A DNA stretch of 64,000 nucleotides, taken from Armatimonadaceae bacterium (GTDB lineage Bacteria > Armatimonadota > Armatimonadia > Armatimonadales > Armatimonadaceae). The notes beneath the pieces are model-generated. The model had not been told where the DNA came from. It made no database searches and saw only the letters and a program-made list of their open reading frames with translations. The translations under genes and the position numbers were made by a program. Shown here piece after piece: positions 2,784-60,669 of the stretch. How positions within the stretch are numbered: the first letter of the stretch is position 1; every line of letters begins with the position of its first letter. Where the stretch lies: the NCBI GenBank assembly GCA_030447685.1, contig JAUJOK010000009.1, positions 4,543 to 68,542 on the forward strand. Direction: 5' to 3'.

Positions 2784-4733
2784 TCAGAAGACGCATTCCT
2801 CTATCTCATTCAGGTCGAAGTGGCGGAGGACGCCGCGCAGGATGACGCTGTAGATATCCTGCGTGTCGTAATGGCGCGCGCCGACCCAATCGGCGTAGCT
2901 GTTCATGCCGTCCGCGACTTCCACCCGCCGAATGCGCTCTTCCAGCAGGGCCGCGAGACGACCATACAGGCCGTGCCGTCCGTGCGCGTAGATTTCCACG
3001 TCGGACACATCGAGGTTCGGCCACTGCGCCAGCATGTCCAGGGCGCGCAGCACGTCGTAGGTTCGCAGGGCGGCCAGATCGTCATCGAGCCAGAGAAGGT
3101 CGGTGGCGATCTTATGGATGACGCCGTAGAAGGCGGTGGGCGAGGAGGCGGTGATGGAGCGTGGCGAGAGCGCGCCCGCGCCGGAGACATCCAGCACAAC
3201 GACGGCGCGGCCTGCGGCGCAGGTATTTCGCAGCCATTCCCGGTGCGGCTGAAGCCGGTTCGTCCCGCCGTCCCAGATCGCCAGCGTCACCGGCAGGTTC
3301 TGGTCGGCGCGGCGGAAGTCGCGAAAGGCATAGCCATTGCTGAAAAGCCCCTCCTGCGACCACCACAGACACATCTGCACGGCCATGTCTTCCCAGTGTC
3401 CCTTGTAGTAAAAGCGCGGGTTCAGGTCGCAGGGGCGGCGTTCGCGGTACACCTTTTCGCGCAGCCAGGCCACCGCCCGCGCCCGGCGTTCCGCTTCCGG
3501 CACGGCGGAGCGCTCCCGCGCCCGTTCTTCCAGACGCTCCCGGTTGGCCTCGTGGACAAAAGCGGCATCTGTAATCTCGCCGCGCACCTGGCCGGATGCC
3601 ATGCACCATAACTGTTCCGGGACGAACGGGGCGATGCTCCCCTCATCGAAAGCGGCGTCCCGGTTCAGCAGATGGCGGGCGAAGAACGCGGCGGCGGCGC
3701 GGGCCATGTTCGCGTTGAAGGCGTGCGTGCTGTTTTCCTCGATCAGGTCCAGATAATCGTTTCTGCCGTACATCTCCCAAAAGCGTTTGCAGCGGCTTAC
3801 CGTGGCGCGCGTGCCTTCAATGGGAAAGAAATCGCTCGTGACGGCGAGGACGCGCACGGGGCGCGGGGTCATCGCCAGCAGGATGTCTTCATGGTCGAAG
3901 CCGCGCGCGGAAAAGCCGGGCCAGATCTGCTCGGCATCCTGCGCGCCGCCCGCGTGGAGATAGCTGCGGCGGCTCATGATAAAGGTGGCGGGAACGGCGG
4001 CGGCGATGCGCGTATCGGCTATCATCACCAGCGAGGTCTGCGTGCCGCCGCCGGAGTTGCCGGTGACGCCGATGCGCTGCGGGTCTACCTCGGGCCGACT
4101 GCACAAGTAGTCCACGCCGCGCAGGGCGTCCTGCAGAAAATAGCGCGCAATGGAGTCCCCCAGCGGAAGGCACTGCGCCCCGGCATGGTCGTGCTCATTG
4201 GTTCCCCAGGGCACCGTGCTGCCGCCGAGGGCGGGTTCATGATGACCCAGCCGCTCGCCCTGCCCCAGCGGGTCCTGCGCCAGCACGATCAGGCCTGCCT
4301 GCGCCAGATACTGACAGACTATCTGGTATTCCTCGACATGCTTGGCTTCGCGGTGATGCCCGCACAGGAACAGCACCGCGCCGCTCGGCCCCACAAGCCC
4401 GTCCGGCAGGTAAAGGTTCGCGGTGACATAGTTCCGGGGGCGCGATTGGAAAATCACCTTCTCAATACGGAAGCCGTTCCCGGCCACGGTTCCGACCGTC
4501 CGCGCCTCCAGCGGCGTCTCCGACGCAGGCAGTCCCCCCAGCGATTCCGTCAGGTACTGGCGAAGGGCGCGCTGCCGTTCTTCCAGAGCGGCGGGGGTGG
4601 TGATGGCGTCGCGCGCCGCATCACCGGCATCGAACGCCTGCTCGGAGCGGCGGTAGACATGCTGCTTGAGCTGATCGCCGACATCGTAGAACCCGTTCCC
4701 CGGCGAATGGTTCTCCAAATCCTGGAGCGTCAT
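2784..4733 (-). CDS. two-domain alpha/beta hydrolase, acetyl xylan esterase (AXE1/Abhydrolase_7)-like
   Basis: 662-aa ORF. Nucleophile elbow 'GVTGNSGGG' and 'HAFN' near the end of the first alpha/beta-hydrolase half; second half resembles a degenerate alpha/beta-hydrolase-like domain. Start set at the ATG of 'MTLQDLEN', which has purine-rich sequence upstream; the GTG at 4772 is an alternative. Confidence 0.7.
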   Translation of the reverse strand: MTLQDLENHSPGNGFYDVGDQLKQHVYRRSEQAFDAGDAARDAITTPAALEERQRALRQYLTESLGGLPASETPLEARTVGTVAGNGFRIEKVIFQSRPRNYVTANLYLPDGLVGPSGAVLFLCGHHREAKHVEEYQIVCQYLAQAGLIVLAQDPLGQGERLGHHEPALGGSTVPWGTNEHDHAGAQCLPLGDSIARYFLQDALRGVDYLCSRPEVDPQRIGVTGNSGGGTQTSLVMIADTRIAAAVPATFIMSRRSYLHAGGAQDAEQIWPGFSARGFDHEDILLAMTPRPVRVLAVTSDFFPIEGTRATVSRCKRFWEMYGRNDYLDLIEENSTHAFNANMARAAAAFFARHLLNRDAAFDEGSIAPFVPEQLWCMASGQVRGEITDAAFVHEANRERLEERARERSAVPEAERRARAVAWLREKVYRERRPCDLNPRFYYKGHWEDMAVQMCLWWSQEGLFSNGYAFRDFRRADQNLPVTLAIWDGGTNRLQPHREWLRNTCAAGRAVVVLDVSGAGALSPRSITASSPTAFYGVIHKIATDLLWLDDDLAALRTYDVLRALDMLAQWPNLDVSDVEIYAHGRHGLYGRLAALLEERIRRVEVADGMNSYADWVGARHYDTQDIYSVILRGVLRHFDLNEIEECVF

Positions 4734-5113
4734 GGCGAGAATCTTTTCTCTGGCGGAAAGCGTTACTGCCACTGTTAATTCGGCGGACAGAAGGACGTTT
4801 CCTGTGACGGGGTCAGCCGGGCGGTAAATGCGCCAACCTCCCGTTTAGCCGCGAAATAAGGTACCCTCACACGTAATCCCACCTGCGATAGAAAGTGCTT
4901 CCATGATTCCTGCCTCGCGCAGTGCGAACAAACCCGGCTGGCTGGTGGAGGGCACCTACACCGACTCGCCTGATGCTGCGAAGGTCATCTGTACCGGTGA
5001 CCGCACTGGTTACGGCAACGTCTACGAGGTCCAGGTCGGGAAGTGGGAGGGCTTGCCGCCGCTGGAATAATATGCGGAATTCACCTGCCTCAGCCGATAT
5101 ATCAAGAGGATAT

Positions 5114-5893
5114 ATGGCTACGGCAACGATAACCTGGGCGCGGGAAAAACCGGAAACCGCAGAGATATTCAGAACGCAGCGGATGACGCGCATCGGATTT
5201 CTGTTCGGCCTGCTGTTCCCTGTTGTTGGGATGATTATTGAGTGCGCGCGGCTGGGCCAGTTTACGCTGAGCGCCCTGCTGACCCTCCAAAGCCGAATGC
5301 CGCTGCTCTGGCTGCTGGATGCCGCGCCGTTCCTGCTGGGCGCACTCGGCTATTTTGTTCGCGTGCCGCAGCTTCTGGAAAGCGGCCATTTCTTCCCCCG
5401 GCGCAGGCTTATCCTGCGTATCGTTGCGACGGTTTTCGCCGCCGAACTGATGACGCTGCCGCTTTTGCCCCTGCTTTTGTCGGGCGCGGGGGGCGGCGGC
5501 TGGGTGGCCGCCGCAGCGGGCGGCGCGCTGCTGGCCCCGCTCAGCGCGCTGCTCGTCTATCTGTTCGTGGTGCGGCCCCTGTGCCGCAGTTCGCTTCAGG
5601 AAATGGCGCGGACGAACGCCGTTCTGGACGCCTCGGTGGACGCCGTGTTCGTGCTGGACGCCTGGGGTGTCATCCACTCCTTTAATCCCGCCGCGCAGAC
5701 TATTTTCGGCTACACGGCGGCGGAGGTGGCGGGGCAGAATGTGCGACTGCTGCTGCGGCGCGCGCGGTCGAGCGGGGCGCGGGTGGTGGGCGCCGGAGTG
5801 TCGGAGCAGGCGCAGGCGGTGGCGGTTGAGCGGGAAGTGACGGCGCGGCGTAAGGACGGCACATCGTTCCCCGCCCATCTGTCTGTCCGCTAG
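5114..5893 (+). CDS. N-terminal part of a membrane sensor (multi-TM domain plus first PAS domain); ends at an in-frame TAG in mid-PAS and is contiguous in frame with the next CDS
   Basis: RBS 'aagagga' 4-5 nt before ATG 5114. TM segments 'IGFLFGLLFPVVGMII', 'MPLLWLLDAAPFLLGALGYFV', 'LPLLPLLLSGAGGGGWVAAAAGGALLAPLSALLVYLFVV'. PAS text '...RKDGTSFPAHLSVR' stops at TAG 5891-5893. Confidence 0.6.
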   Translation: MATATITWAREKPETAEIFRTQRMTRIGFLFGLLFPVVGMIIECARLGQFTLSALLTLQSRMPLLWLLDAAPFLLGALGYFVRVPQLLESGHFFPRRRLILRIVATVFAAELMTLPLLPLLLSGAGGGGWVAAAAGGALLAPLSALLVYLFVVRPLCRSSLQEMARTNAVLDASVDAVFVLDAWGVIHSFNPAAQTIFGYTAAEVAGQNVRLLLRRARSSGARVVGAGVSEQAQAVAVEREVTARRKDGTSFPAHLSVR

Positions 5894-8047
5894 ATGCGCC
5901 TGGGCGCGCGGTCTCTGTTTATCGCCGTTCTGCGCGATATTACCGAAGGCAAGCGCGCGGAAGAGGCGCTTCGTCTTTTCGAGGAACGGTTCCGCCTGGT
6001 GCTGGAGGGGCTGAAGGATCACGCCGTCTTTCTGCTCAGCCTGGATGGCCGCGTCGTTACCTGGAACGCCGGGGCGGAGCGCATTCAGGGATATGCGGCG
6101 GACGAGATCGTCGGCCAGAACTTTTCCTGTTTTTATCCCGATGACGAAGTGAAGCGCGGTGCGCCCGAGCACGAACTGGCAGCCGCGAGGGACGGCTCCC
6201 CGTACGAGGGCGAGGGCTGGCGCGTGCGTAAGGACGGCTCGCGATTCTGGGCGATAACGACGCTCACCGCGTTGCGTAACGAATCGGGCAAGGTGCGCGG
6301 CTTCGCCCTGGTTATCCGCGATATTACCGAGCGGCAGGAGGCGCAGGAGGCGCTGCGGCAGGCACAGGAAAAGTACCACGGCGTTCTGGAGCAGGCCGTC
6401 ATCGGCTCGTTTGAAACTACGCCGGGCGGGCGCTTTATCCGGGTCAATCCGGCGCTGGCGCGTCTGTGCGGTTATGAGTCGCCCGCCGAGATGAAAAAGC
6501 GGATCACCGACATCGGGCAGCAGTTGTACGTGGAGCCGGAGCGGCGCGCGCAGTTCGTCCACCTGATGCGCGAGCACACCGCTCTGTCCGAATTTGAATC
6601 GCGCGTCTATCGCAAAGACGGCAGCATTATCTGGATCAATGAAACCGCGCGGGCAGTCCGGGACGTTCGCGGCGCACTGCTTCACTACGAAGGCATGGTG
6701 GAAGATGTCACCAAGCGCAAAGCGGTAGAGATACAGCTTCTGCATGACGCCTTTCATGATAAGCTGACGGGCTTGCCGAACCGCGCGCTGTGCCTCGACC
6801 GGGTGGGACAATCCATCGCGCGGGCGCAGCGCAGCCCGGACTATTTGTTCGCGGTGCTTTTGCTCGATTTAGACCGTTTCAAGGTTGTCAACGACAGTCT
6901 GGGGCCGACCGTCGGCGACCGGATGCTGGTTGAGATTGCGCGCCGTTTGGAGCAGTGCCTGCGCCCCTCCGATACCGTTTCGCGCCTGGGCGGGGATGAG
7001 TTCGCGCTGTTGCTGGATGGAATTAAAGATGTCGGTGACACCATTCATGTGGCCGAGCGGGTACAGCAGGAGCTGGCCGCGCCCTTCGTTTTGGGCGGAC
7101 AGGAGGTATTTGCCGGGGCCAGCATCGGGATCGCCCTGAGCGCGACCGGCTATGAGCAGGCCGAGGATGTTCTGCGCGACGCCGATATCGCCATGCACCG
7201 GGCCAAGACACTGGGCAAATCGGGACATGAGATGTTCGACACGGTCATGCACGCCCGCGCCGTGAAGCGGCTGGAGATAGAGACCGATCTGCGGCGGGCT
7301 ATCGAGCGGGAAGAGTTCCGCGTGTTTTACCAGCCTATCGTTTCGCTGGAAACCGGCGAAATTACCGGCTTCGAGGCGCTGGTGCGCTGGCAGCACCCGG
7401 AGCGCGGCCTGGTGTCCCCGGCGGAGTTTATCCCCGTGGTCGAGGAGACGCGCCTGATACTTCCACTCGGGCGGTGGGTGCTGCGCGAATCATGCCGCCA
7501 GTTAAAAGAGTGGCAGACGCGTTTTCCCGAGCATCCGCCGCTGACAGTCGCGGTGAACCTTTCGGGCAGGCAGTTCGAGCAGCCGGATTTGATCGCGCAT
7601 ATACGGCAGATTCTGGAGGAAACGCAGCTTTCCCCAGGCCGCCTGAAACTGGAAATTACCGAAAGCGTGATCATGGAGAACGCCGACTCGGCGTCCGCCC
7701 TGCTTTTGCAGATACGCGAGATGGGTATCGAGCTGGCGATTGACGACTTCGGCACCGGCTATTCGTCGCTCAGCTATCTGCACCGCTTCCCGATCAACGC
7801 GCTGAAGATCGACCGCTCGTTTGTCAGCCGCATCGGGGCGCAGGGCGAGAACGCAGAGATAGTCCGCACTATCATTGCGCTGGCGGACAATCTGTGCCTG
7901 GACGTGGTGGCGGAGGGCGTGGAGACGGCGGAGCAGTTAGCGCATCTGCGCGCGCTCCATTGCCGCCACGGGCAGGGCTACTTTTTCAGCAAACCGATAG
8001 AAGCCGCCGCCGTGGAAAGCCTTCTCGTCCGCCGCCCGACCTGGTAA
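5894..8047 (+). CDS. PAS-PAS-GGDEF-EAL c-di-GMP turnover protein (continuation of the upstream sensor ORF)
   Basis: 717 aa. 'IAVLRDITEGKRAEE' completes a PAS fold; second PAS follows; GGDEF motif 'RLGGDEFALLL'; EAL motif 'FEALVRW' plus 'DDFGTGYSSLSYL'. ATG sits directly after the TAG in the same frame (frame 2). Confidence 0.85.
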   Translation: MRLGARSLFIAVLRDITEGKRAEEALRLFEERFRLVLEGLKDHAVFLLSLDGRVVTWNAGAERIQGYAADEIVGQNFSCFYPDDEVKRGAPEHELAAARDGSPYEGEGWRVRKDGSRFWAITTLTALRNESGKVRGFALVIRDITERQEAQEALRQAQEKYHGVLEQAVIGSFETTPGGRFIRVNPALARLCGYESPAEMKKRITDIGQQLYVEPERRAQFVHLMREHTALSEFESRVYRKDGSIIWINETARAVRDVRGALLHYEGMVEDVTKRKAVEIQLLHDAFHDKLTGLPNRALCLDRVGQSIARAQRSPDYLFAVLLLDLDRFKVVNDSLGPTVGDRMLVEIARRLEQCLRPSDTVSRLGGDEFALLLDGIKDVGDTIHVAERVQQELAAPFVLGGQEVFAGASIGIALSATGYEQAEDVLRDADIAMHRAKTLGKSGHEMFDTVMHARAVKRLEIETDLRRAIEREEFRVFYQPIVSLETGEITGFEALVRWQHPERGLVSPAEFIPVVEETRLILPLGRWVLRESCRQLKEWQTRFPEHPPLTVAVNLSGRQFEQPDLIAHIRQILEETQLSPGRLKLEITESVIMENADSASALLLQIREMGIELAIDDFGTGYSSLSYLHRFPINALKIDRSFVSRIGAQGENAEIVRTIIALADNLCLDVVAEGVETAEQLAHLRALHCRHGQGYFFSKPIEAAAVESLLVRRPTW

Positions 8048-8224
8048 TGCCCCTTTACAATTTACTACATTGAGAAAAAGCACTCGGTGCGATTCGTCTT
8101 TTCGTCTGCGGTAGCAAAATCCAAGATAACTTCGCTTTTGGAGCAAAAGGCGAAGTTGCTTCAGCGAGCAGAACGCAGGTCAAGACAACGGCGCAGGCGG
8201 TATGGGCAGAGTCGCTTTGGCCCG

Positions 8225-8488
8225 TTAGACCCACCTGCTGCTCCTTATAGCCTTAGCCCAAAAAACTGCCGCCGTGATCCACCAGCCCGCTACGATGGTC
8301 TCTATTAGAAATGGCACTTGCTGAGGCACAGTCAGCAGTATACTGAAAAGAATCGCAGCCACGGACGTAGCGATTGCCATCTTAATCGAATCCCGGAAGC
8401 TTCTATAGTACGCCTCTCGCTTCCGTGCGCGCTGTTCCTGAATTATGAAGTCGATAGGCTCAATGGCAACCACGCGTTCTGGAAGCAT
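8225..8488 (-). CDS. small membrane protein, hypothetical (possibly a fragment)
   Basis: 87-aa ORF with one hydrophobic helix 'IATSVAAILFSILLTVPQQVPFLIETIVAGWWITAAVFW'. Open frame extends upstream without an ATG, so it may be a remnant. Confidence 0.25.
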   Translation of the reverse strand: MLPERVVAIEPIDFIIQEQRARKREAYYRSFRDSIKMAIATSVAAILFSILLTVPQQVPFLIETIVAGWWITAAVFWAKAIRSSRWV

Positions 8489-9926
8489 GCGCGCCTGGAA
8501 AGCATAAACGCCCTTCTCGCGCGGGTACTTGTAGTCAACAACGGTGTCCGCGCCCTCTGGGAACCCGAAGCCCAGCGCCGCGCTTCTTTGAGTGCATCTC
8601 CCGGTGAATCCGCCTCAACGTGGACACTGCCGCTAACCTATATTTCATAGATGGGCATGAGTTGTACTACCGTTCCTTCGAATAAGGGAGCACCTAACGA
8701 CTGTTCAACAACGGCACGGATTTGGCTCTTTGGGGAGAAAGGGAAGTCCTACTTGGCCGCCTGTTCTCGGGCGTCAAAGATGGAGTTGCCCTCTTTGTCA
8801 GTCACCTCGATGTTGCCGCCATCCGGTGTCGCCGCCAGCGTAATGGCAAGCTGCTCGCTCCCCGCATGAATAATGTCCAGCCAGCCGCCGTGCAGATCAC
8901 AGCCCATCGTCACCCGCATTTTGCCGTCCAGGCTGTTTACGTGAATGTAACCGCCGTCGTTGTCGGCGCGGAGAGTTCCAGCACTACCTTGCCCTCCGTG
9001 TTGGCAATCCGAGCGGAGCAGTCGCGGTGATGCCATCAGCACCTTCGACGGCCAGGAAGGCGTTGGACAAGCGAGCTATCGTCTCCTCGGCACGCGCAAG
9101 CCGCCGCTCCAGTTCTCCGCACTCGCTCGTCCATCTCTGTAGGTCTTTCCTTCCAGGAGCGGCACTTCGCTTTTCGTATAAAGGCGACGTCATGCCTTGT
9201 GTGACCGAAGTCGGCAATCAACCGCTCGTAGATTCGCGATTGTTCACTTCATTATCGCACACGTTCTCATCAACGCGTTTTGTAACAGATGGTTAATGCC
9301 CGCAGCCGCAGTCGCACGTACAGCGTTTTGACGGCTCGCTACCGGCGGAAGCAGCGTCCACGGCGGACGTGCCTTTGGCGCGGATTTGCAGCCCGCCGTT
9401 GTTCACGTCTATACGCAGGCTGCCGTTTTCCTCCGGCGAGCGCCAGTCGCTGCGAAGCCCCTGCTCATCCACCGTCAGCGAAAACGCCTCCTGCTCCTTT
9501 TCCTGCACCGAAACCGTGGGGACAGCAGCGGCAGCGAGCGCGCGGTTCCGCCTGCCCCGGTACCGGAAGAGTTCGCCGAAACCGCCGCCAGAAAGACCAG
9601 TAAGCAGAACGTCCCCAGTCCCGCCGCGAAAAGCGTCCATTCCCTGCTGCTCAGTCGCATCGCCATTTCCTTTCCTGTCTCCCGAAGTGCATGGATAAGA
9701 CCCCCTCGCGTGCATCCAGGTTGCGCCCGCGCAGGCTGCCTGTTTCTGCTCCTGAAGAAACACCCCGTAGCGAGCCGATAATACGAGAGAGAAGCGTCGA
9801 AATGGGCGCGGATGGCGAAGCAAATCCTGGTAAAACACCCGCCAGTAAAAGTGTGTGGTAATTGCGCGGGGTTATGGCACAACCAAATCAGAGACGGTTC
9901 TAAAGTTACGAAATGAGGAATATCGA

Positions 9927-10190
9927 ATGAATACCCTTCCCGTAGGCGGTCAGTCGCCGGACGATCAGTCGGTTAAGCTGACCAAGCGTGAGATCGAAGT
10001 TCTGACCCTGGTTATCGAGGGCAAGTCGAGCAAAGAGGTGGCGGAGCAGCTGTTCGTCAGCAAGCGTACCGTTGACTTCCACCTGGCCAATATCTACGAC
10101 AAGCTCAACGTCACCAACCGTGTCCAGGCGTTCCGCGAGGCGACGCGCCGTGGCCTTATCCCCTTCCATATTGTCGGCAGCAAGCAGTAG
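9927..10190 (+). CDS. LuxR/GerE-family helix-turn-helix transcriptional regulator (small solo HTH)
   Basis: 'LTKREIEVLTLVIEGKSSKEVAEQLFVSKRTVDFHLANIYDKLNV' is a GerE/LuxR HTH. RBS 'gaggaa' 7 nt before ATG 9927. Ends with TAG. Confidence 0.8.
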   Translation: MNTLPVGGQSPDDQSVKLTKREIEVLTLVIEGKSSKEVAEQLFVSKRTVDFHLANIYDKLNVTNRVQAFREATRRGLIPFHIVGSKQ

Positions 10191-17294: not shown

Positions 17295-17525
17295 ATGAAA
17301 CGAATCTTTGTGAGTCCTATCCTGCGTGCGCTCTGGTTCGCTACGTTTTGTACCGCGTGGGCCGTTTATTTTTACTTTCGTGGGCAGTCCGGCAAGGTGT
17401 TAGCTCGGTTCGTTTCCTATTCTGCTGTGGGACTCTTCGCGCTCCTAAGCCTAGTGTGGTGGTGGCTCTTTATTCGCTCGCTTTCTGCTCGAAGCCGCGA
17501 ACATCATAAAGAAAGCCATCTGTGA
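17295..17525 (+). CDS. small two-TM membrane protein, hypothetical
   Basis: 'MKRIFVSPILRALWFATFCTAWAVYFYF' and 'VSYSAVGLFALLSLVWWWLFI'. Overlaps the pgm 3' end in a different frame. Confidence 0.4.
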   Translation: MKRIFVSPILRALWFATFCTAWAVYFYFRGQSGKVLARFVSYSAVGLFALLSLVWWWLFIRSLSARSREHHKESHL

Positions 17526-23939: not shown

Positions 23940-24906
<967 letters not shown>

Positions 24907-29586: not shown

Positions 29587-31905
29587 ATGAAAGCCAGAAC
29601 CATCACCCACGTTTTCGCACTGCTCGTCGGCGCGCCGCTGCTGCTTCTGTTGCCTGCCCGCGCCCAGGAGGAGGCGGGCCACATGCACGGCCCCGATGGG
29701 CGGCATATCGCCGTCGCCAGCACCTTCGGGGGCCAGGCAGCAGGGCAGCGGAGCATCCTGAGCCACCACGACCTGATGATTACCGATTTGCGCCAGCCTG
29801 GTCCCGACAGGAACGGCAAGGTGGTCGAGGGCTGTGACGTACATTCGGTGATCCACAAGAAGGGTGACCCGAAAGCGGTCATTCACCGCGAGCACAACAC
29901 CTTCGAGCCTGAAAACGGTGTGTACGGCTCGCACATGATGTACCGCGAGCCAGGGGAGTATGTCATTATCGAGAAGGTCACTCTGCCCGATAAGCAGCAG
30001 GTGACTCTGGAGTTCCCGATATGGGTGCCCGCTCCCCAGGGTCAGGCTGAGCACGCCCATCACTCCCCCTGGTGGACAGTACTCGGAGTTGCCGCAATCC
30101 TCCTCGCCATACTGGGTGCATTTCTTTTGGGGAGGCGCAGCGGGCGGCGAACGGTGGCGATGCTGTCTATCGTCGCTCTGGTCACGGGTTCCCTCCCCAT
30201 TGTTCCCACGGCTCATGCGCAGGAAGACGGAGAAGAAGCGGGTCATATGCACGGCCCTGACGGGCGGCACGTCGCCGTTGCCAGTACGTTCGGGGGCGGC
30301 AATGCGCAGGAGCCGCTACGGGCCTACCCCACCGCCGACCGACAGGAGGCCGCCGTCCAGACCCAGGGACACTACCGCTTCCGCCTGTCCATCGAGAACG
30401 AGGAAATGGCCCCGCCTGACCCCGATGTCGTCACCATCTCGTCCGATGCGGCGAAAACCGTCGGGCTGACAACAGTCGCGGCGCGGGCGGCGCGGGGGAC
30501 GAGCGCACTGACGACAACAGGTCAGGTGAAGCCAAACCCGAACCGTGCCGCAACCGTGAACGCGCGTGTCGCGGGGCGCGTGGTGCGCGTAGGGGTGACG
30601 CCAGGAGATGAGGTGAGCGCGGGCCATGTCGTCGCTGTGCTCGACAGCGCCGAAATAGCCCAGGTCCAGGCTGATTTACGCCGAGGCGCGTCTGAGATCG
30701 CCCAGTCGGACGCCGCTGCCGCGCGCGCCCGCTCCCAAATTGCCGAGGCACAGGCCAACCAAGAGCGCGCCCGTGCCGAGGCAAGTCAGGCGCAGGGGCA
30801 GGTGCGGAACGCCGAACGTACTCTGGCACGCCAGCGGGAACTTGCGCGGTCAGGCGCGTTCGCTTCGGGTCCCGTCGAAGCCGCGCGTTCTGCCGTTGCG
30901 ACTGCCGAGGGCGAACTGAACGTTGCGCGCACAGCGCTTGCAACCCTGGAAGCGCAGGCGCGCCGCCTGGAAACAGGCGTCGCCGATGGTGTGGTATCCC
31001 GCCGCGAGGCCGAGACTGCTCAGAGCGCCGCCGCCCAGGGCCGCACCCGCGTCGAAACCGCCCAGCGGCAACTAACGATTGCACGGGCGGCGCTTGCCCG
31101 TGAAGAACAAATCCAGCGCCGCGGGCTGCGCGACGCGCGCGAAGTGCAGCAGGCCCAGGCCGATCTTGCCGCAGCCCAGGCTGCGCTGCGAGCCGCGAAC
31201 GCCGTGGTTCAGAGCGAGGCACGGCGGGTTCAGGCTGCCCGCGGCGGCGCGGCGGAGGCAGAGGCAACGCGCACACGGGCGCGCACCAATCTCGCTTCGG
31301 CGCGCAACCGATTGCGGTTGCTCGGCGCAACGCCCAGCGGCGGCAGTCAGGTGACGGTGGTGACACCACTGGGGGGCGAGGTGGAGGCGCGGCCCGTCAG
31401 CGCAGGCGAAGTGGTGGAGGCGGGGCAGACGCTCGCACGCATCCTGAACACGGACAGCGTGTGGGTCGAGAGCGACGTGTTCGAGAAAGACTTGCCACAA
31501 GTGCGCGTCGGCCAGGCCGTGACTATCGCCGCCGACGCCGTTCCTGGCCGCACCTTCCAGGGGCGCATTTCTTATATTGGTGGCGCGGTGAACCCTGAAA
31601 CTCGCGCCGTGCGTGTCCGCACCGCAGTCACCAACCCTGGCGAGGTGCTCAAGCCCAATATGTTTGTTCGGGTGCTTGTCGGCGCAGGCCGAGGTCGTGC
31701 GATTCTCGTGCCCCAGGAGGCTGTCCAGGAGGACGGGAACGAGCAGGTCGTCTTCATCCAGGAAGGGGAAGGCTACCGCCGCCGCGCTGTTCGGATCGGC
31801 GCGACGCTGGGTGACATGGCAGTGATCGAAGGGGGGCTGAAGGCGGGTGACAAGGTGGTCACGCAAGGCGCGTACCAGTTGCTCGCCTTGGCGAAGAAAG
31901 GATAA
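29587..31905 (+). CDS. RND efflux membrane fusion protein (CzcB/CusB-like) with two tandem N-terminal HMHGPDGRH-motif modules
   Basis: 772 aa. Signal '...LLLLPARAQEEAGHMHGPDGRHIAVASTFGG' then a roughly 130-aa module. A second hydrophobic segment follows, 'WWTVLGVAAILLAILGAFLL...AHAQEDGEEAGHMHGPDGRHVAVASTFGG'. Then canonical HlyD/MFP lipoyl, hairpin coiled-coil and beta-barrel ('VVAVLDSAEIAQ...', 'RVGQAVTIAADAVPGRTFQGRISYIG'). Confidence 0.85.
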   Translation: MKARTITHVFALLVGAPLLLLLPARAQEEAGHMHGPDGRHIAVASTFGGQAAGQRSILSHHDLMITDLRQPGPDRNGKVVEGCDVHSVIHKKGDPKAVIHREHNTFEPENGVYGSHMMYREPGEYVIIEKVTLPDKQQVTLEFPIWVPAPQGQAEHAHHSPWWTVLGVAAILLAILGAFLLGRRSGRRTVAMLSIVALVTGSLPIVPTAHAQEDGEEAGHMHGPDGRHVAVASTFGGGNAQEPLRAYPTADRQEAAVQTQGHYRFRLSIENEEMAPPDPDVVTISSDAAKTVGLTTVAARAARGTSALTTTGQVKPNPNRAATVNARVAGRVVRVGVTPGDEVSAGHVVAVLDSAEIAQVQADLRRGASEIAQSDAAAARARSQIAEAQANQERARAEASQAQGQVRNAERTLARQRELARSGAFASGPVEAARSAVATAEGELNVARTALATLEAQARRLETGVADGVVSRREAETAQSAAAQGRTRVETAQRQLTIARAALAREEQIQRRGLRDAREVQQAQADLAAAQAALRAANAVVQSEARRVQAARGGAAEAEATRTRARTNLASARNRLRLLGATPSGGSQVTVVTPLGGEVEARPVSAGEVVEAGQTLARILNTDSVWVESDVFEKDLPQVRVGQAVTIAADAVPGRTFQGRISYIGGAVNPETRAVRVRTAVTNPGEVLKPNMFVRVLVGAGRGRAILVPQEAVQEDGNEQVVFIQEGEGYRRRAVRIGATLGDMAVIEGGLKAGDKVVTQGAYQLLALAKKG

Positions 31906-31918
31906 GGGACTGCCGTTC

Positions 31919-34900
31919 GTGTTCAACCGCATCATCGAGTTCAGCATCAAAAACCGTGTGCTCGTCTGCGCCGCCGCGCTCATGCTCCTGGTATACGGCG
32001 CGCGGGTCGTCACACAGATGCCCGTGGATGTGCTGCCTGATCTGAACCGCCCCGTGGTCACGGTCATGACCGAGGCGCATGGACTTGCCCCCGAAGAGGT
32101 CGAGCCGCTTGTCACCTTCCCCATCGAGACGGCAATGAACGGCGCGGCGGGGGTGCAGCGGGTTCGTTCGGCTTCCAGCGCGGGGCTTTCCATCGTCTGG
32201 GTGGAGTTCGACTGGGACACCGACATCTTCCGCGCGCGCCAGGTCGTCAACGAAAAGTTGCAGACCGCGCAGGGACGGCTGCCCACGGGCACGTTGCCCT
32301 CACTCGCCCCTGTATCCTCCATCATGGGCGAGGTGCTGCTTGTCTCGCTGTCGAGCAAGGACGGCACCACGCCGCCCATTGAGGTGCGCTCGCTCGCAGA
32401 CTGGGTGGTGCGCCCGCGCCTCCTGGGCGTGCCTGGCGTGTCGCAGGTTGTGCCCATCGGGGGTGGGGCCAAGCAGTTCCAGGTGCTCACCAACCCCGCC
32501 CGCCTCCAGCAATACGGCGTGACGCTCGACCAGTTGACCGAAGCCGCGCGCCAGTCCAACCTGAACACGTCGGGCGGGTTTTTGCAGACGCCGCAGCGCG
32601 AGGCGATCATCCGCATCACGGGCCGCGCCCGCTCCCCCCAGGACATCGCCCGCACCGTTGTCGCTCAGAAAAACGGCGTGCCTGTAACCATTGGGCAGGT
32701 GGCGGAGGTCCGCTTCGGGGCGGGACCGAGGCGCGGTGATGCCAGTGTAAGCGGAGCGCCCGCCGTCATCCTCAGCGTTCAGAAGCAGCCCAACGCAAAT
32801 ACCCTGGAACTGACCCGCGCGCTCGACAAGGCGCTCGGCGACATCCAGGCTGCGCTCCCCCGCGACGTGACGATAAACCGCGACCTGTTCCGCCAGGCCA
32901 CCTTCATTGAGGCCGCCGTGGACAACGTGAAGGAGGCGCTGCGCGACGGCACCATCCTGGTGTTTGTCATCCTGCTCGCCTTTTTGCTGAACCTGAGGGC
33001 TACTTTCATCTCGCTCGTCGCCATACCGCTGTCCTTCGTAATCGCCATGCTGGTTCTGGACCGCTTCGGCATCTCGGTCAATACGATGACGCTCGGTGGG
33101 CTGGCGGTCGCTATCGGGCTGGTGGTGGACGACAGCATCGTGGACGTGGAAAACGTGGTGCGGCGGCTGCGGGAGAACCGCGCGAAGCCTGCTCCACTAC
33201 CGCCACTCCAGGTGGTCTTTGAGGCAAGCGCCGAGGTCCGAAACAGCATTGTGTTCGCCACTGTTATCATTGTGCTGGTCTTCGTGCCGCTCCTGTCACT
33301 GGAGGGCATGGAAGGGCGCGTGTTCCTGCCGCTGGGCCTGGCCTTTATTACCGCACTGACCGCTTCCTTGCTCGTTTCGCTCACGCTAACGCCCGCTCTC
33401 TGCGCCTTTCTGCTCGCCCGCACGGCTAAAAAAACATCCGCCGATCACGCCGAGGACACCTGGCTGGTGCGCCACTTAAAGCGTGGGGACGAGCCGCTGG
33501 TGCGCTGGGCCATTCGCCATCCCACTCCCGTGCTCGCAGGGGCTGCGTTGCTGTCTCTCGCCGCGCTCGCCCTGCTGCCGCGGATGGGACGTGAGTTCCT
33601 GCCCCCGTTCAACGAGGGCAGCCTTTCCATCAGCGCGATCCTGCCTCCTGGTACGGGCCTAACTGAATCGAACCGAATAGGGACCGCTATCGAAAAGCAG
33701 CTCCTGTCCGTGCCTGAAGTTGTCCATACGGGGCGGCGTACGGGGCGCGCTGAGATGGATGAGCACGCCGAGGGCGTCGGCTATTCCGAAATCGACGTGG
33801 GTTTACGTGCGAGCCGACGCTCCCACGGACAGGCGGTCGCCGAGATACGCCGAAAGGTGGAGGCTATCCCTGGCGCGGTGGTCGCTGTCGGACAGCCCAT
33901 CTCGCACCGACTGGACCACCTGTCGTCGGGAGTGCGCGCCGCACTTGCCGTAAAAGTGTATGGCCCCGACCTGGACGCGCTGAGGAGCCGTGCTCAGGAG
34001 GTCCGAAACGTTATGTCCCAGGTGCCTGGCGTCGTGGATTTGCAGGTCGAGCCGCAAATTGAGGTGCCTCAGGTTCGGATCGACATCGACCGAGACCAGG
34101 CCGCGCGCTACGGTCTGACCCCAGGGGAACTCGCCGAAACGCTGGAAACCGCGCTGGGCGGCCATGTGGTCGGGCAGGTCTTGCAGGAACAACGCACCTA
34201 TGACCTTGTGGTCTGGTTTGACGAGGCCGCCCGAGGCGATACGGATGTGATCGGGCGGACACTGGTAAGCACGCCGTCAGGGGCGCGCGTACCGCTCGGG
34301 CAGTTGGCACGGGTTCGCAAGGCGGCGGGGCCGAACACCATCAACCGTGAAAACGTGTCGCGGCGCATCGTGGTCCAGGCCAATGTCCAGGGTCGAGACC
34401 TGAACAGCGTCGTGACTGACCTCCAGCGGCGGATGGGCGCGGTGCAGGCGGCGTGGCCCACGGGCTACTTCGTTGAGTACGGGGGCCAGTTCGAGAGCCA
34501 GCAGAACGCCATGAGCCGCATCCTGCTGCTTGGAGCGTTCACCGTCGTTGCCATCTTCCTTGCGCTTTATGTTGCCCTCCAATCGTGGCGGCTCGCCCTC
34601 CAAGTCATGGTAAACCTGCCGCTTGCTCTCGTTGGCGGTGTCCTTGCCGTTTACCTGACAGGCGGCGTGCTGTCCGTGGCCTCGTTGGTCGGCTTTATCA
34701 CTCTGTTCGGTATCGCCACCCGCAACGGCATCATGATGCTGTCCCACTATGTCCACCTGATGCGCGAGGAGGGGGAAGCCTTTGGGGAACACATGATCGT
34801 GCGCGGTACGCTGGAGCGACTTTCACCCGTCCTTATGACTGCCCTCGCCGCCGCACTCGGTCTGCTGCCGCTGGCGCTTTCAGTGGGTGAGCCTGGCAAG

Positions 34901-35125
34901 GAACTTTTGCAGCCGATTGCCGTGGTTATTTTGGGCGGGCTGCTATCCAGCACGCTGCTCGACCAGTTGGTCACGCCCGCGCTGTTCTTCCGCTTCGGAC
35001 GCGCCGAATGGGAGGGTTCCGCCGAGGGGAGCGGGAACGTTATGCCGCACGCAGGGGACGATCAGGGTACATCTGTTGCCCCGACGGGCGGGGGCGGGAG
35101 AAGCCAGCCTGAACCCGCGCACTGA
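31919..35125 (+). CDS. heavy-metal-efflux RND transporter (CzcA/CusA family)
   Basis: About 1068 aa from the GTG at 31919 ('MFNRIIEFSIKNRVLV...'). 12 TM helices and two large periplasmic loops. RBS 'aaggataaggga'. Confidence 0.9.
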   Translation: MFNRIIEFSIKNRVLVCAAALMLLVYGARVVTQMPVDVLPDLNRPVVTVMTEAHGLAPEEVEPLVTFPIETAMNGAAGVQRVRSASSAGLSIVWVEFDWDTDIFRARQVVNEKLQTAQGRLPTGTLPSLAPVSSIMGEVLLVSLSSKDGTTPPIEVRSLADWVVRPRLLGVPGVSQVVPIGGGAKQFQVLTNPARLQQYGVTLDQLTEAARQSNLNTSGGFLQTPQREAIIRITGRARSPQDIARTVVAQKNGVPVTIGQVAEVRFGAGPRRGDASVSGAPAVILSVQKQPNANTLELTRALDKALGDIQAALPRDVTINRDLFRQATFIEAAVDNVKEALRDGTILVFVILLAFLLNLRATFISLVAIPLSFVIAMLVLDRFGISVNTMTLGGLAVAIGLVVDDSIVDVENVVRRLRENRAKPAPLPPLQVVFEASAEVRNSIVFATVIIVLVFVPLLSLEGMEGRVFLPLGLAFITALTASLLVSLTLTPALCAFLLARTAKKTSADHAEDTWLVRHLKRGDEPLVRWAIRHPTPVLAGAALLSLAALALLPRMGREFLPPFNEGSLSISAILPPGTGLTESNRIGTAIEKQLLSVPEVVHTGRRTGRAEMDEHAEGVGYSEIDVGLRASRRSHGQAVAEIRRKVEAIPGAVVAVGQPISHRLDHLSSGVRAALAVKVYGPDLDALRSRAQEVRNVMSQVPGVVDLQVEPQIEVPQVRIDIDRDQAARYGLTPGELAETLETALGGHVVGQVLQEQRTYDLVVWFDEAARGDTDVIGRTLVSTPSGARVPLGQLARVRKAAGPNTINRENVSRRIVVQANVQGRDLNSVVTDLQRRMGAVQAAWPTGYFVEYGGQFESQQNAMSRILLLGAFTVVAIFLALYVALQSWRLALQVMVNLPLALVGGVLAVYLTGGVLSVASLVGFITLFGIATRNGIMMLSHYVHLMREEGEAFGEHMIVRGTLERLSPVLMTALAAALGLLPLALSVGEPGKELLQPIAVVILGGLLSSTLLDQLVTPALFFRFGRAEWEGSAEGSGNVMPHAGDDQGTSVAPTGGGGRSQPEPAH

Positions 35126-36169: not shown

Positions 36170-36508
36170 GTGGCAGAGGCGCGGCCCTGCTCTCCTGGGT
36201 GGCGACGGCACGTGCCTCTGCTCTTTGCTATCTTCCTGGACATGATGGGCTTTGGCATGGTCATTCCTGACCTGCAAACACGCCTGGAAGCCTTCGGCGC
36301 GCAGGGCTGGGCCATCGGGCTGGTGTTGTCGAGCTACTTTCTGACGCAGATCGTGGTGTCGCCGCTCTGGGGGCGGCTCAGCGATAAGGTGGGCCGCAAG
36401 CCCGTGCTGGTAATCTGCGGCACGCTCTCGGCAACCTCAATGGTGCTGGCGGGCTGTGTGCTGCTGGTGGCGGCACTCTTACCGCTGAGGGGCTATGCTA
36501 CTGCGTAG
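36170..36508 (+). pseudogene. N-terminal fragment (about 3 TM helices) of an MFS transporter, truncated
   Basis: 'LLFAIFLDMMGFGMVIPDLQ...WGRLSDKVGRKPVLVICG' is the MFS TM1 to loop 2-3 signature, but the ORF ends after 112 aa and is followed by about 190 bp of lower-GC non-coding DNA. Confidence 0.5.
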
Positions 36509-37223: not shown

Positions 37224-38148
37224 GAGATTCCGCCGTTGCGCCCAGGTTGCAGTCCGCGTCCTCGGGCGCGCATATGCCCCACGTCTCCACCTGGACCGTA
37301 GTGTGGGTCATGTCAAACTCGCGCTCCAGTACCTCCCGTGCGGCTTGAAGCACCTCCTGCTCGCTCTGCACCCCCGCCTCGTCCAGAACCAGATGCGCCG
37401 TCAGGCTGTGTTTGCCGCTCGTGATCGCCCAGACATGAAGATCATGAACGTCCTGCACCCCTGGCAACGCCCGCAGGGACGCGTCAATCTGCTCCAACTC
37501 GATACCCTCAGGCACGCCCTCCAGCAGGATGTTCACGCTCTCCGAGAGCAGCGTCCAGGTGCGGGGCAATACCCACAGGCCAATCAGGACGGCGAAGATC
37601 GGGTCCACCTGCCACCAGCCTGTGAACTGGATCACGAGCGCCCCCGCGATCACGGCCACCGAACCCAGCAGGTCACTCCACACCTCCAGGTAGGCTCCCT
37701 TCATGTTCAGGCTCTGGGAGCTGCCTGCCTGGAGAACGCGCATTGAGAGGAGGTTGACCATAAACCCGAGCGCGGCTACGCCGAGCATCCAACCCGACTG
37801 GATTTCGGGCGGCTCCTGGAACCGCTTCCACGCCTCCCAAAGGATATAGAAGGCGACCAGGAACAGCACCGCCGCGTTCACCGCCGCCGCCAGTATCTCG
37901 AAGCGGTAGTAGCCGAAGGTGCGCTTTTTGTCGGCGGGCCGCTTGCTGAAGCGAATCGCGACCAGCGCGATTCCGAGGGCAGCGACATCGGTGAGCATGT
38001 GGGCGGCGTCGGAAAGCAGCGCCAGGCTCCCCGTCACGAAGCCGCCCACGACTTCGGCTATCAAGTACGTGGCTGTCAGAGTCAGGGCGATCCTCAGCGC
38101 CCGCTCGTTACCTGCGCCCCCGTGAGTGTGGCTATGGCCTGACCCCAT
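37204..38148 (-). CDS. cation diffusion facilitator transporter (CzcD-like)
   Basis: His-rich N-terminus 'MGSGHSHTHGG', six TM helices with 'LLSDAAHMLTDV', C-terminal cytoplasmic domain. RBS 'gaaggagg' 6 nt before the ATG. Confidence 0.85.
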   Translation of the reverse strand: MGSGHSHTHGGAGNERALRIALTLTATYLIAEVVGGFVTGSLALLSDAAHMLTDVAALGIALVAIRFSKRPADKKRTFGYYRFEILAAAVNAAVLFLVAFYILWEAWKRFQEPPEIQSGWMLGVAALGFMVNLLSMRVLQAGSSQSLNMKGAYLEVWSDLLGSVAVIAGALVIQFTGWWQVDPIFAVLIGLWVLPRTWTLLSESVNILLEGVPEGIELEQIDASLRALPGVQDVHDLHVWAITSGKHSLTAHLVLDEAGVQSEQEVLQAAREVLEREFDMTHTTVQVETWGICAPEDADCNLGATAESHAGHEH

Positions 38149-41100
38149 GCGCGGCCTCCTTCCCTTCAAACCAGGCGTACAGCGTGGGAAGCACGATCAG
38201 GGTCAGCAGCGTGCTGGACAGGATGCCCCCGATCACGACGGTCGCCAGCGGGCGTTGTACCTCGGCCCCGACCCCCGAAGACAGGGCCATCGGGACGAAA
38301 CCCAGGCTCGCCACGAGTGCGGTCATTAGCACGGGCCGCAGTCGTGTGTGCGCCCCTTCCCGAACTGCCTCAGGCACGTCCCGCCCCTCCTCGCGCAGCT
38401 TGTTGATGGCCGACACCAGAACCACACCGTTCAACACGGCGACCCCAAAGAGAGCAATGAACCCGACCCCCGCCGAGATGGAGAAGGGAAGCCCCCGCAG
38501 CAGCAGGGCGAGGATGCCCCCCGTGACCGCGAGCGGCACACCCGTAAAGATCATTGCGGCCTGCCTGAGCGACCCGAAGGTCATGAACAACAGCAGGAAG
38601 ATCAGCGCCAGCGCCAGGGGGACGACAATCAGGAGTCGCGTGCGCGCGCTCTGGAGGTTCTCGAACTGCCCGCCCCACTCGATGCGGTAGCCCGTGGGCA
38701 GTTTCACCTGCCCCGCCACCTGCGCCTGGGCGTCGGCGACGAATCCGCCCAGGTCGCGCCCGCGTACATTCGCCTGAACCACGACCCGACGCGCCCCCTG
38801 CTCACGGCTTACCTGCGCGGGCGAGGGACGGATGGCGATCTGGGCTACCTGGGAAAGCGAAACCCGCTCGCCGCCTGGGGCAGCGACGCGCAGCTCCTCC
38901 AGAGCGGTTATGTCGTTGCGCAGGGCCTCGGGCAGCTTCACCACGATGTCGAACCGGCGGTCCCCTTCGATCACCTGGCCCACGGTACGCCCGCCGATGA
39001 ACGCCTCAATTACCTCCTGCACGTCGGCGACGTTGATGCCGAACCGCGCGGCGGCGGCGCGGTCAATGGTGATCTCCAGCGTCGGCAGGCCCGTGGTCTG
39101 CTCCATCGTCACGTCCTCAGCCCCCGCCACCTTTCCGAGCACCGCCTGGACGCGGTTGCCCAGGCTGGATAGGGTTTCCAGGTCTTCACCAAACACCTTC
39201 ACGGCGATGTCCGCCTTCACGCCCGACACCAACTCATCCGTGCGAAGCTGGATCGGCTGCGAAAACGCGTAGCCCTGGCCTGGGACTTCCCTTTCCAGCC
39301 GCTCCTGCATCTGGGAAATGAGCTTTTCTTTGGTCAGGCCCCGCCGCCACTGCCCGCGATCCTTCAAGGTGATAATCATGTCGCCAACGCTCGGGGGCAT
39401 CGGGTCGGTGGCAAGCTCCGCGCTCCCGATGCGCGTGTAGGCGTCTACCACCTCGGGGAAGGACTTGACGACCCGCTCCGCCGCCCCGACCATAGCGACG
39501 GAATACTCGACCGATACGCCGGGGGGGCGGATGGGCTGGATCGCGATGGCTCCTTCGTCCAGGCGCGGGATGAACTCCGAGCCGAGCAGCGGAAACAGCG
39601 CGGCGCAGCCCAGGAAAAAGAGCACGCTTCCCGCCGCGACTATCCCGCGCCGCCGAAGCGCCCATTCCAGGGTCGGACGGTACAGGCGGTCCGCCGCGCG
39701 CAGGATCAGGTTGTCCTTTTCCCGCGTATCGCGGGACAGGCAAAGCGCGCAGAGCGCGGGGATAAGAGTGAGCGTCAGGATCAGCGCGCCCACGAGTGCG
39801 AGCGCGACGGTATAGGCCATCGGTCGGAACATCTTCCCCTCGATGCCCGTGAGGGTCATGATGGGCAGATAGACGATAATGATGATCGCCACGCCGAAGG
39901 TAATGGGCGTGCCGGGGTGTGCCGACCTCGCGCGCCGAGGCGAGGACGTTCTGGATCACCTCGGCGCGCGTCAGGGTGCTCCCCCGATGCTCCCGCGCCT
40001 CCGCCAGGCGACGGACAGCGTTCTCGACCATGACCACCCCGCCATCCACGATCAGGCCGAAGTCAATCGCGCCGAGCGAAAGCAGGTTGGCGGAGATGCC
40101 GAAGTGCTGCATCCCGATCACGGCGAACAGCATGGCGAGCGGAATGGTGCAGGCGACGATCAGCGCGCCGCGCACGTTGCCGAGCAGCAGGAGCAGCACG
40201 GCGACGACCAGGATGCCGCCTTCCAGCAGGTTGCGCTCAACCGTACCGATGGTCTTTTCAACCAGTTCGGTGCGGTCATAGACGGTCGCGAGTCGCACGT
40301 CGGGGGGCAGGGAAGCGCGCACCTGGCGCACCTTCTCGTCCACGGCAAGCGACACGGTGCGGGAGTTCGCGCCTTTGAGCATCATCGCGATGCCCAGGAC
40401 GGTTTCTTTGCCGTTGTGCGTGGCCGCGCCCTGGCGCAGTCCGCCGCCCTCGGTGACGGCGGCGACATCCCGCAGGAAGATCGGGGTGCCGTGTTCGGCG
40501 GCAACAACGATGCTCTCGATATCGCCCTTGTTGCGGACGACCCCGATACCCCGCACCAGCAGGCGCTCTGCTCCCTTGACGATGTAGCCGCCGCCCGCGT
40601 TCGCGTTGTTGCGCTCGACCGCTTCAATGACTTCACGCAGGGTCACACCCCGCGACAGCAGCCGCTGCGGGTCGATCTCTACCTGGTACTGCTTCTCGAA
40701 CCCGCCCTGGCTGTTTACCTCAGCGACTCCTGGCACGGTGCGAAGCTGCGGCTTGACCAGGAAGTCCTGGAGCGTACGCAATTCGGTCGGGCTGCGCTTC
40801 TCGGAGTCCAGGGTGTACTGGTAAATCTCGCCCAGCCCCGTCGAAACAGGGGCCATTTCGGGCGCGCCGACACCTTCGGGCAGGCTTTCCCGCGCTCCCG
40901 CGAGCTTCTCGCCCACGAGCTGGCGCGCGAAGTACAGGTTCACATCGTCGGCGAAGACGACCGTCACCTGGGACAGCCCGTACTGCGAAAGGGAGCGCAC
41001 CTCGGTTACATCGGGCAACCCTCCCAGTGCTACTTCGATGGGAAAGGTAACCAACTTTTCCACTTCGGCAGGCGCGAGGCCAGGAACCGCCGTGTTGATC

Positions 41101-41243
41101 TGGACCTGATTATTGGTCACGTCAGGCAGGGCGTCGATGGGCAGGCGCTGGAAAGCGACCAGCCCCCCGAGCACAAGGAAGACCGTCCCGATCAGGACGA
41201 GAAGGCGCTGCCGCACGCCAAATTCAAGGATGCGTTCGATCAT
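38132..41243 (-). pseudogene. second CzcA/CusA-family RND transporter, split by a 1-nt frameshift at a C-run near 39905
   Basis: N-terminal 'MIERILEFGVRQRLLVLIGT...ASAREVGTP' continues in another frame as 'ITFGVAIIIIVYLPIMTLTGIEGKMFRPM...'. Removing one C from 'acaccccggcacgccc' restores '...EVGTPGTPITFGVAIIII'. Confidence 0.8.
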
Positions 41244-41244
41244 T

Positions 41245-45530: not shown

Positions 45531-45532
45531 GG

Positions 45533-60268: not shown

Positions 60269-60360
60269 GGATTTTCATTCCTCCTGATAGGTTTTGTCGG
60301 TTCTCCGGGACAAGCCACCTTTGCCTGACCGGAGTGTGTTTTGGGTTATCGAGAGTACGA

Positions 60361-60573
60361 TTACTTGGATGTCGTCTTCACGATAGCCAGCGCCAGGAAC
60401 ATCCCGACAACGAGGCCCAGAAAAGCGCCTCCAGCCATTCCGATTCCCCAGCCTGCCGCGCCGCCTGCCGCAAGGCCGACGGTCCCACCAACGGTCGCGC
60501 CCGCCTGCGTCCCCGCAACCGTACCCGTGCTTGCCGCCTGTGCCTCGTCGTGGGCCTTGTCTTCGTCCGCCAT
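60361..60573 (-). CDS. small glycine-zipper membrane protein
   Basis: 70 aa 'GLAAGGAAGWGIGMAGGAFLGLVVGMFLALAIV'. Confidence 0.45.
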   Translation of the reverse strand: MADEDKAHDEAQAASTGTVAGTQAGATVGGTVGLAAGGAAGWGIGMAGGAFLGLVVGMFLALAIVKTTSK

Positions 60574-60669
60574 TCTCTACTCACTTTCCGCCGCCGTATC
60601 TACTGCGGCACCAAAATCAGGGCATTGGATAATGCCTGTTCTTCTTCCGATTGCACCCGAACGGGAAGC

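Follow-up and report, generated by a model that had tools for sequence, protein, structure and literature searches.

A single in-frame TAG interrupts a 977-residue, membrane-anchored sensor gene in the 64-kb stretch of Armatimonadaceae DNA analyzed here (the whole stretch is called the window), and the interruption is probably a genuine and young nonsense mutation. The gene lies at 5114–8047 on the + strand and encodes a cyclic di-GMP (c-di-GMP) enzyme, with the stop inside the first of its three PAS domains (PAS1). What it displays is ordinary gene decay or strain polymorphism: the stop is one of several inactivating lesions within 64 kb, and no new mechanism is evident.

Direct reading of the window shows that frame 2 is open from ATG 5114 to TAA 8045–8047 and is interrupted once, by TAG 5891–5893, with ATG 5894–5896 immediately 3′ of this stop. 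The peptide flanking the stop reads RKDGTSFPAHLSVR up to it and MRLGARSLFIAVLRDITEGKRAEE after it. The two pieces, of 259 and 717 codons, have coding-like composition on both sides of the TAG, with GC contents at third codon positions (GC3) of 0.74 and 0.77, respectively. The open frame reaches 5′ as far as 4907, and the sensible start is ATG 5114, which has a Shine-Dalgarno sequence (AAGAGGA, 5104–5110) upstream. No Shine-Dalgarno sequence was found at ATG 5894, where the best anti-Shine-Dalgarno duplex is +1.5 kcal/mol. A public protein collection calls the two pieces as separate genes, and each is an exact singleton among ~15 billion proteins (P0121 for the 259-aa piece and P0001 for the 717-aa piece), both from one 125,114-bp NCBI contig. 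For annotation, the two "genes" should be treated as one interrupted gene. Its parts around the stop are as follows.

5114..8047 (+): the interrupted gene as a whole; joined protein of 977 residues with four transmembrane helices (predicted), PAS1, PAS2, PAS3, GGDEF, and EAL, and one internal TAG
5104..5110 (+): Shine-Dalgarno-like AAGAGGA upstream of ATG 5114; anti-Shine-Dalgarno duplex of −5.8 kcal/mol
5114..5890 (+): N-terminal piece of 259 codons; membrane module and PAS1 without its last beta-strand
5891..5893 (+): in-frame TAG, codon 260; aligned with the Glu of FixL HLSIGEMQSGG, where the fourth PAS beta-strand ends
5890..5893 (no strand): CTAG tetranucleotide made by the stop; one of two in the window, the other (17451–17454) being intergenic
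5894..5896 (+): ATG abutting the stop; Met of a conserved PAS motif and possible restart codon
5894..8047 (+): 717-codon downstream open reading frame (ORF); what is left of PAS1 (its last strand), then PAS2, PAS3, GGDEF, and EAL
5609..5968 (+): PAS1, FixL-like by Pfam, containing the stop; its closest solved structures are the Bradyrhizobium japonicum FixL heme-PAS domains (E ~1e-19)

Profile and translated searches both place the stop within one uninterrupted PAS domain. On the joined sequence, whole-length profiles span it (PF24820, positions 6–109 of 109 at residues 175–275, and PAS_7, positions 6–115 of 115 at residues 176–284), and the PAS profile match of the 259-aa piece alone stops at position 93 of 113. 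Four related PAS domains, searched by tblastn, read through the stop in one frame at 44–45% identity (E 1e-33 to 1e-36), and the same four detected no similarity in any other frame of PAS1. A single codon divides one gene and, within it, one domain, and the continuity across it is far beyond chance. An earlier note on this DNA had described a frame 2 open from 5114 to 8047 apart from this TAG, and the frame stands as described; its abutting ATG and the peptide it quoted around the stop are both exact, and its view that a single PAS domain continues across the stop agrees with the full-length profiles and the single-frame alignments.

The codon lost at position 260 was likely GAG. We compared 746 local alignments that span the stop, drawn from homologous PAS domains in 208 proteins. 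Glu stands opposite the stop in 441 of them (59%), followed by Pro (90), Ala (65), Lys (23), Gln (17), Ser (14), and Leu (6), while neither Trp nor Tyr ever occurs there among the 746. Every one of these domains has a sense residue at this position, or a gap in four cases, and a split or a stop was seen in 0/746. Among the closest alignments (at least 42% identity) the fraction with Glu is 17/20 (85%), and Glu makes up 88% of the aligned residues that are one substitution away from TAG. The gene itself prefers GAG among its Glu codons (53 vs. 28). Because Glu prevails and Trp never occurs among homologous PAS domains, the ancestral change was likely GAG to TAG, a G-to-T transversion, and the change from TGG suggested in the earlier note finds no support in the alignments. 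PAS1 falls in a large FixL-like subfamily, the consensus of which runs ...RRKDG(S/T)-FP-x-x-L-(S/A)-V-(S/G)-E-(M/V)-x-x-G-x-x-x-x-F-T-G-I-V-R-D-I-T-E-R-K. Against this consensus, ATG 5894 reads as the Met codon of the conserved (S/G)-E-M motif and not as a designed start, since it is a motif Met that lacks a Shine-Dalgarno sequence.

The nucleotide context of the stop also bears on its age. CTAG occurs at 2 sites in the 64 kb against ~48 expected (observed/expected 0.04), and the next lowest tetranucleotide, AGCT, is at 0.56. C precedes only 2 of 255 TAG trinucleotides (A precedes 102, G 115, and T 36), and 9/9 of the other + strand TAG terminators checked are preceded by A or G. A marked shortage of CTAG is familiar from enterobacteria (PMC5337935). 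Avoidance of restriction-modification, a Vsr-like repair bias, or DNA structure could each cause the depletion. The C before this TAG argues for a fresh mutation or an error and against a long-maintained feature, because the CTAG context has otherwise been nearly purged from the window. The rest of the 2.9-kb frame is undamaged and all catalytic motifs are intact, which, together with the CTAG context, points to a young lesion.

No orthologue of the gene was found in any collection searched. Neither the GTDB species representatives nor the JGI metagenomes contain its exact DNA, even with any codon (NNN) allowed at the stop. In a word-indexed search of 5.8 billion proteins, the best non-self matches of the joined protein come from scattered phyla and are 40–52% identical over most of the protein; protein-seeded scans gave partial matches of at best 49–61% identity in GTDB genomes and a single 28% match in JGI metagenomes. 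PdxS of the window assigns the genome to Armatimonadota, and its own best non-self match is only 87% identical, which accounts for the missing orthologues.

TAG is in standard use in the window, and nothing suggests that it is recoded. In a crude gene set, TAG terminates 10/40 genes, including those for GrpE, a TolC-like protein, and a LuxR-type regulator, and the GrpE and TolC-like products end where such proteins should. The GerE/LuxR-type ORF at 9855–10190 does end in TAG 10188–10190, as had been noted before, and with roughly one in four crude gene calls ending in TAG the earlier doubt about genome-wide amber recoding is well founded. We found no other in-domain TAG, no tRNA gene, and no Rfam element in the whole window, and no Pyl-related family among the Pfam matches of the ~55 window ORFs scanned. 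There is no readthrough-promoting RNA structure around the stop, the fold of 5854–5943 being no better than shuffled (z = −0.17). Five other same-frame junctions (1468 TAA, 20577 TAG, 29581 TAG, 42322 TGA, and 58548 TAA) were considered as recoding sites and rejected, being neighboring genes or non-coding frames; in translation, the gene pairs are GrpE and a membrane protein, a TolC-like and an HlyD-like protein, an enolase-family protein and a creatininase, and PdxS and a Nudix protein. Separately, the window encodes an intact SelB, the selenocysteine-specific elongation factor (50684–52615, − strand, 643 aa), and the organism probably recodes some UGA as selenocysteine, with no bearing on the TAG at 5891.

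The interrupted gene is no special case, since other broken genes share the window. A Pfam scan of the other ORFs, looking for incomplete profile matches, brought the damaged genes to ~5 of ~55. An RND pump of the AcrB/CzcA family (38132–41321, − strand) is split exactly at profile position 432/433. An imperfect tandem duplication of 10 nt at 39914–39923 (GGCACACCCC followed by GGCACGCCCA) shifts its reading frame, and the junction reads GAGGTC-GGCACACCCC-GGCACGCCCATT; removal of these 10 nt restores a 1059-residue ORF that aligns without gaps to the intact paralogue at 31847–35125. The two copies of the repeat differ at a synonymous third-codon position, and the duplication could have arisen by slippage some time ago, or it could be an artefact of strain variation or assembly. 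A MoxR-type AAA ATPase gene (~23966–24906, + strand) carries two lesions. One is the loss of a base from the G-run at the Walker A motif (24082–24085), where GGGG stands in place of the required GGGGG and the protein breaks between ALFEG and VPGTAKT; the other is an in-frame TAA at 24205–24207 (GTNV, stop, EMSTG), at a position that we take to be occupied by an aromatic residue in relatives. This gene looks like a decaying pseudogene. Two MFS fragments (36170–36508 and 45531–46139, both + strand) match positions 1–80 and 56–171 of the 347 of Pfam MFS_1, with no continuation in any frame nearby, and look like deletion remnants. The damage is consistent either with real lineage decay, as in the gene with two lesions and the remnants, or with consensus problems, as in the homopolymer indel and the near-duplicate. 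The contig does not appear to be generally noisy, because most long genes are intact over full Pfam profiles, among them those for a 1092-aa RND pump, the 643-aa SelB, a 561-aa sulfite/nitrite reductase, and a 477-aa phosphoglucomutase. Before any of its broken genes is read biologically, the contig merits a check of its consensus quality or its pseudogene load.

The joined protein combines a putative membrane anchor with three PAS domains (residues ~166–285, 292–406, and 419–535 by Pfam) and a GGDEF-EAL output module (residues 546–702 and 725–961). The earlier note had counted two PAS domains ahead of GGDEF and EAL, and Pfam on the joined sequence adds a third. The domains and motifs are placed as follows.

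5192..5584 (+): four hydrophobic segments at residues 27–47, 64–82, 99–123, and 130–157, by Kyte-Doolittle scan
5756..5830 (+): aberrant central PAS1 segment, RRARSSGARVVGAGVSEQAQAVAVE, replacing the FixL heme-pocket helix in the alignment to FixL; local GC 0.77–0.80
5987..6331 (+): PAS2, by Pfam PAS_9 and PAS, residues 292–406
6368..6718 (+): PAS3, approximate limits; third Pfam PAS stretch, with PAS_8 at residues 159–212 of the 717-aa piece
6749..7219 (+): GGDEF, by Pfam (E 4.7e-43) and alignment to MorA 4rnh
6962–7003 (+): RxxD inhibitory site (I-site) and GGDEF active site (A-site), RPSDTVSRLGGDEF, residues 617–630; both intact by motif search
7286..7996 (+): EAL, by Pfam (E 1.8e-83), with all signature motifs present

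The four hydrophobic segments, from a hydropathy scan that covered residues 1–300 of the joined protein, are taken to be a membrane anchor. The membrane module (residues 1–157) has no Pfam match, and in an exhaustive HMMER search with the 259-aa piece against 1.84 billion representative proteins no match covered residues 1–150, which marks the module as an apparent orphan sensor or anchor. By profiles and signature residues, the output module is typical of the GGDEF and EAL families. PF00990 scores 147.2 bits against a Pfam gathering cut-off of 23.8 (profile positions 1–159 of 161), with the RxxD site five residues upstream of the GG(D/E)EF motif, and PF00563 scores 279.9 bits against a gathering cut-off of 31.3 (profile positions 3–236 of 236), with the signature residues that bind metal and substrate all present: EALVR at residue 754, VNLS at 814, EITE at 847, DDFGTGYSS at 877, KIDR at 898, EGVE at 934, and QGYFF at 954. 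The tandem aligns full-length, over ~420 residues, to MorA (4rnh, E 1e-117), PA0575 (5m3c), and DosP, with E values from 1e-117 to 1e-82. The 717-aa product would be soluble, as its first ~40 residues lack a hydrophobic segment and all its domains are of cytoplasmic types. Natural soluble proteins of ~690–740 residues that share this PAS-PAS-GGDEF-EAL layout can be aligned to the piece from residue ~23–33 to the end.

PAS1 itself shows a departure from its closest structural relatives that appears to predate the stop. It resembles seven distinct FixL chains (E 1e-19 to 1e-16), and FixL HLSIGEMQSGG aligns opposite its HLSVR-stop-MRLGA; by a count from His200, the stop corresponds to Glu240 of FixL, where the fourth strand ends, ahead of the loop and the last strand. 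Where FixL has its heme-pocket helix (PEPDRSRHDSYISRYRTTSDPHIIGIG), PAS1 carries the Ala/Gly/Arg/Val-rich RRARSSGARVVGAGVSEQAQAVAVE, which is 1–2 residues shorter. The heme-ligating His200 of FixL, on the F-alpha helix, stands opposite a Gly, and residues 215–239 contain no His. A hidden double frameshift over these residues was considered and rejected, tblastn having shown no alternative-frame similarity, and the aberrant center thus reads as divergence. By this alignment PAS1 lacks the proximal His that defines FixL-type heme sensors, and may have been degenerate or differently liganded already before the stop arose.

Upstream of the gene, a small 55-codon ORF at 4903–5070 (+ strand; MIPASRSANKPGWLVEGTYTDSPDAAKVICTGDRTGYGNVYEVQVGKWEGLPPLE) ends 44 nt before the gene start and has no Pfam match. 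Downstream, the ~1.8 kb directly after the gene (8048–9854, GC 0.57) contains no convincing ORF and matches nothing in Rfam, and the ORFs tried there match nothing in Pfam. Across 4700–8400, terminator-like hairpins number 7 against 3.9 ± 2.1 in shuffled sequence, not above expectation. Elsewhere in the window, 60269–62846 is a second low-GC stretch (0.55 at 60–62 kb) that may be foreign or non-coding DNA; the ORFs at 60253–60732 and 61744–62688 have no Pfam match.

These observations suggest a simple course of events. The ancestral gene would have encoded one 977-residue membrane-anchored protein with four transmembrane helices followed by PAS, PAS, PAS, GGDEF, and EAL, and a single substitution, most likely G to T, would have turned GAG (Glu) into TAG, a premature stop at codon 260. 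The PAS fold is a five-stranded sheet with its last strand in the center. The 259-residue product ends after the fourth PAS strand and would misfold; it is probably unstable, because PAS1 should not fold without that central last strand. Any surviving activity would most likely arise by termination at UAG and reinitiation at the abutting AUG, giving a soluble 717-residue PAS-PAS-GGDEF-EAL enzyme that is cut off from the membrane module and is probably produced in smaller amounts. Readthrough at a trace level, yielding full-length protein, may be a second route. If the mutation is real, a dead gene and a reduced-level soluble enzyme appear roughly equally probable outcomes.

A young nonsense mutation and an erroneous base, both raised in the earlier note, are still live explanations, and several points weigh against the mutation. 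With no orthologue found and the sequence known from one contig, a consensus or assembly error is possible, and the base is uncorroborated by GTDB species representatives or JGI metagenomes. The loss from the MoxR G-run and the RND near-duplicate could be assembly or strain-mixture artefacts, which would raise the error rate assumed for the contig; a homopolymer-length lesion and a 10-nt near-duplicate with synonymously differing copies are typical of long-read errors or collapsed strain variants. In that case the real gene would have a sense codon, probably GAG, at 5891–5893, and the TAG would be a wrong base or a minority strain allele in a metagenome-assembled consensus. An otherwise intact gene fits this explanation, and a stop that makes the nearly absent word CTAG fits an error as well as a very recent mutation. 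However, finished consensus sequence contains far fewer substitution errors than indels, most long genes of the window are intact over their full profiles, and the two lesions in MoxR and the two MFS remnants look like real lineage decay. We regard an artefact as unlikely, though well within consideration. Bacterial reinitiation is reported to be strongly Shine-Dalgarno-dependent in reconstituted and reporter systems (PMC5972666), and restart may be inefficient here because ATG 5894 lacks such a sequence. No sigma-70-like promoter was found inside the gene when 4700–8400 was scanned. With the center of PAS1 already aberrant, the sensor may not have worked even when the gene was uninterrupted, making any change in signaling smaller. 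These same observations favor a dead pseudogene, a sub-case of the young mutation that differs in outcome, in which the stop causes polarity and decay and neither piece functions, as several other genes of the window are decaying. Yet 717 codons remain open at 64% GC where a random frame would meet a stop about every 38 codons (a base-composition estimate), the catalytic motifs are all intact, and Shigella diguanylate cyclase (DGC) pseudogenes of a like kind make active protein (PMC11327459). The gene pair that abuts at 21527 with an ATGA overlap is also nearly without a Shine-Dalgarno sequence, which is weakly informative given crude start calls. On balance, complete loss of function is somewhat doubtful.

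A far less probable class of explanations holds that the TAG is old or functional: a maintained leaky stop, a gene fission with strand complementation of PAS1, or decoding by a suppressor or pyrrolysine-type tRNA. UAG followed by A, as here, is a comparatively leaky and suppressible context in E. coli genetics, the ATG directly abuts the TAG, and the GC3 values of both pieces are coding-like. In-frame stops under purifying selection have also been described (PMC7918605). Still, the same window uses TAG as a regular terminator and holds no tRNA gene, stimulatory RNA structure, or Rfam element; the aligned PAS domains carry neither split nor stop at this position; the ATG is an ordinary motif Met without a Shine-Dalgarno sequence; and an old C-preceded TAG would have been exposed to the process that removed ~96% of CTAG sites. 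Even more improbable is the particular idea that the TAG serves as a maintained switch, with restart and readthrough together fixing how much soluble and how much tethered enzyme is made, or that the two pieces re-associate through strand donation in PAS1. In the latter case the 259-residue fragment and the 717-residue enzyme would form a non-covalent two-piece sensor, with the last strand donated to PAS1. We therefore favor a young nonsense mutation. If the TAG is genuine, this strain of Armatimonadota no longer has one of its c-di-GMP enzymes in membrane-tethered form, may make a deregulated soluble PAS-PAS-GGDEF-EAL protein by analogy with the Shigella DGC pseudogenes, and may shift in biofilm or motility behavior; beyond annotation, the significance is little.

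Comparison with characterized proteins separates a conventional output module from an unusual sensor. MorA of Pseudomonas aeruginosa (PDB 4RNH), PA0575 (5M3C), and DosP of E. coli have a like output module, and the Armatimonadota protein keeps all A-site, I-site, and EAL signature residues. Their sensor parts differ from that of the Armatimonadota protein, MorA and PA0575 having other membrane/PAS arrangements and DosP a heme-PAS. PAS1 shares with B. japonicum FixL (PDB 1DRM, 1DP6, 2CMN, and 8JS5) its N-terminal half and the strand region RRKDGT-FP-HLS-x-E-M...F-x-x-x-RD-T. FixL has His200 and the surrounding helix, whereas PAS1 has neither and by sequence would not be classified as a FixL-type heme sensor.

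Nonsense-interrupted c-di-GMP genes are already known from Shigella and E. coli strains. In Shigella flexneri, dgcE, dgcQ, dgcN, and dgcM have a nonsense mutation upstream of an intact GGDEF and RxxD, as here (PMC11327459). A Met lies near the stop in these genes (stop 177 and Met 180 in dgcM, stop 56 and Met 59 in dgcQ), and in the Armatimonadota gene it abuts the stop directly. The interrupted dgcE, dgcQ, and dgcN, with nonsense before GGDEF and a Met nearby, still give several protein species and c-di-GMP (PMC11327459); proteins truncated at the N terminus continue to be produced and to raise c-di-GMP. In Shigella the mutation is proven by comparison with intact E. coli orthologues, and immunoblot and liquid chromatography–tandem mass spectrometry demonstrate expression, whereas the present gene is known from its sequence alone. 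Unlike the Shigella DGCs, the Armatimonadota protein also has an EAL domain and three PAS domains. More broadly, in-frame stops are found widely among bacterial genes, and most of them do not persist for long (Belinky et al. 2021, PMC7918605). The present case, a single in-frame TAG that is best read as recent in a gene otherwise intact, resembles those of that study, which used orthologous comparisons. The gene described here is another instance of this known phenomenon, from a poorly sampled phylum.

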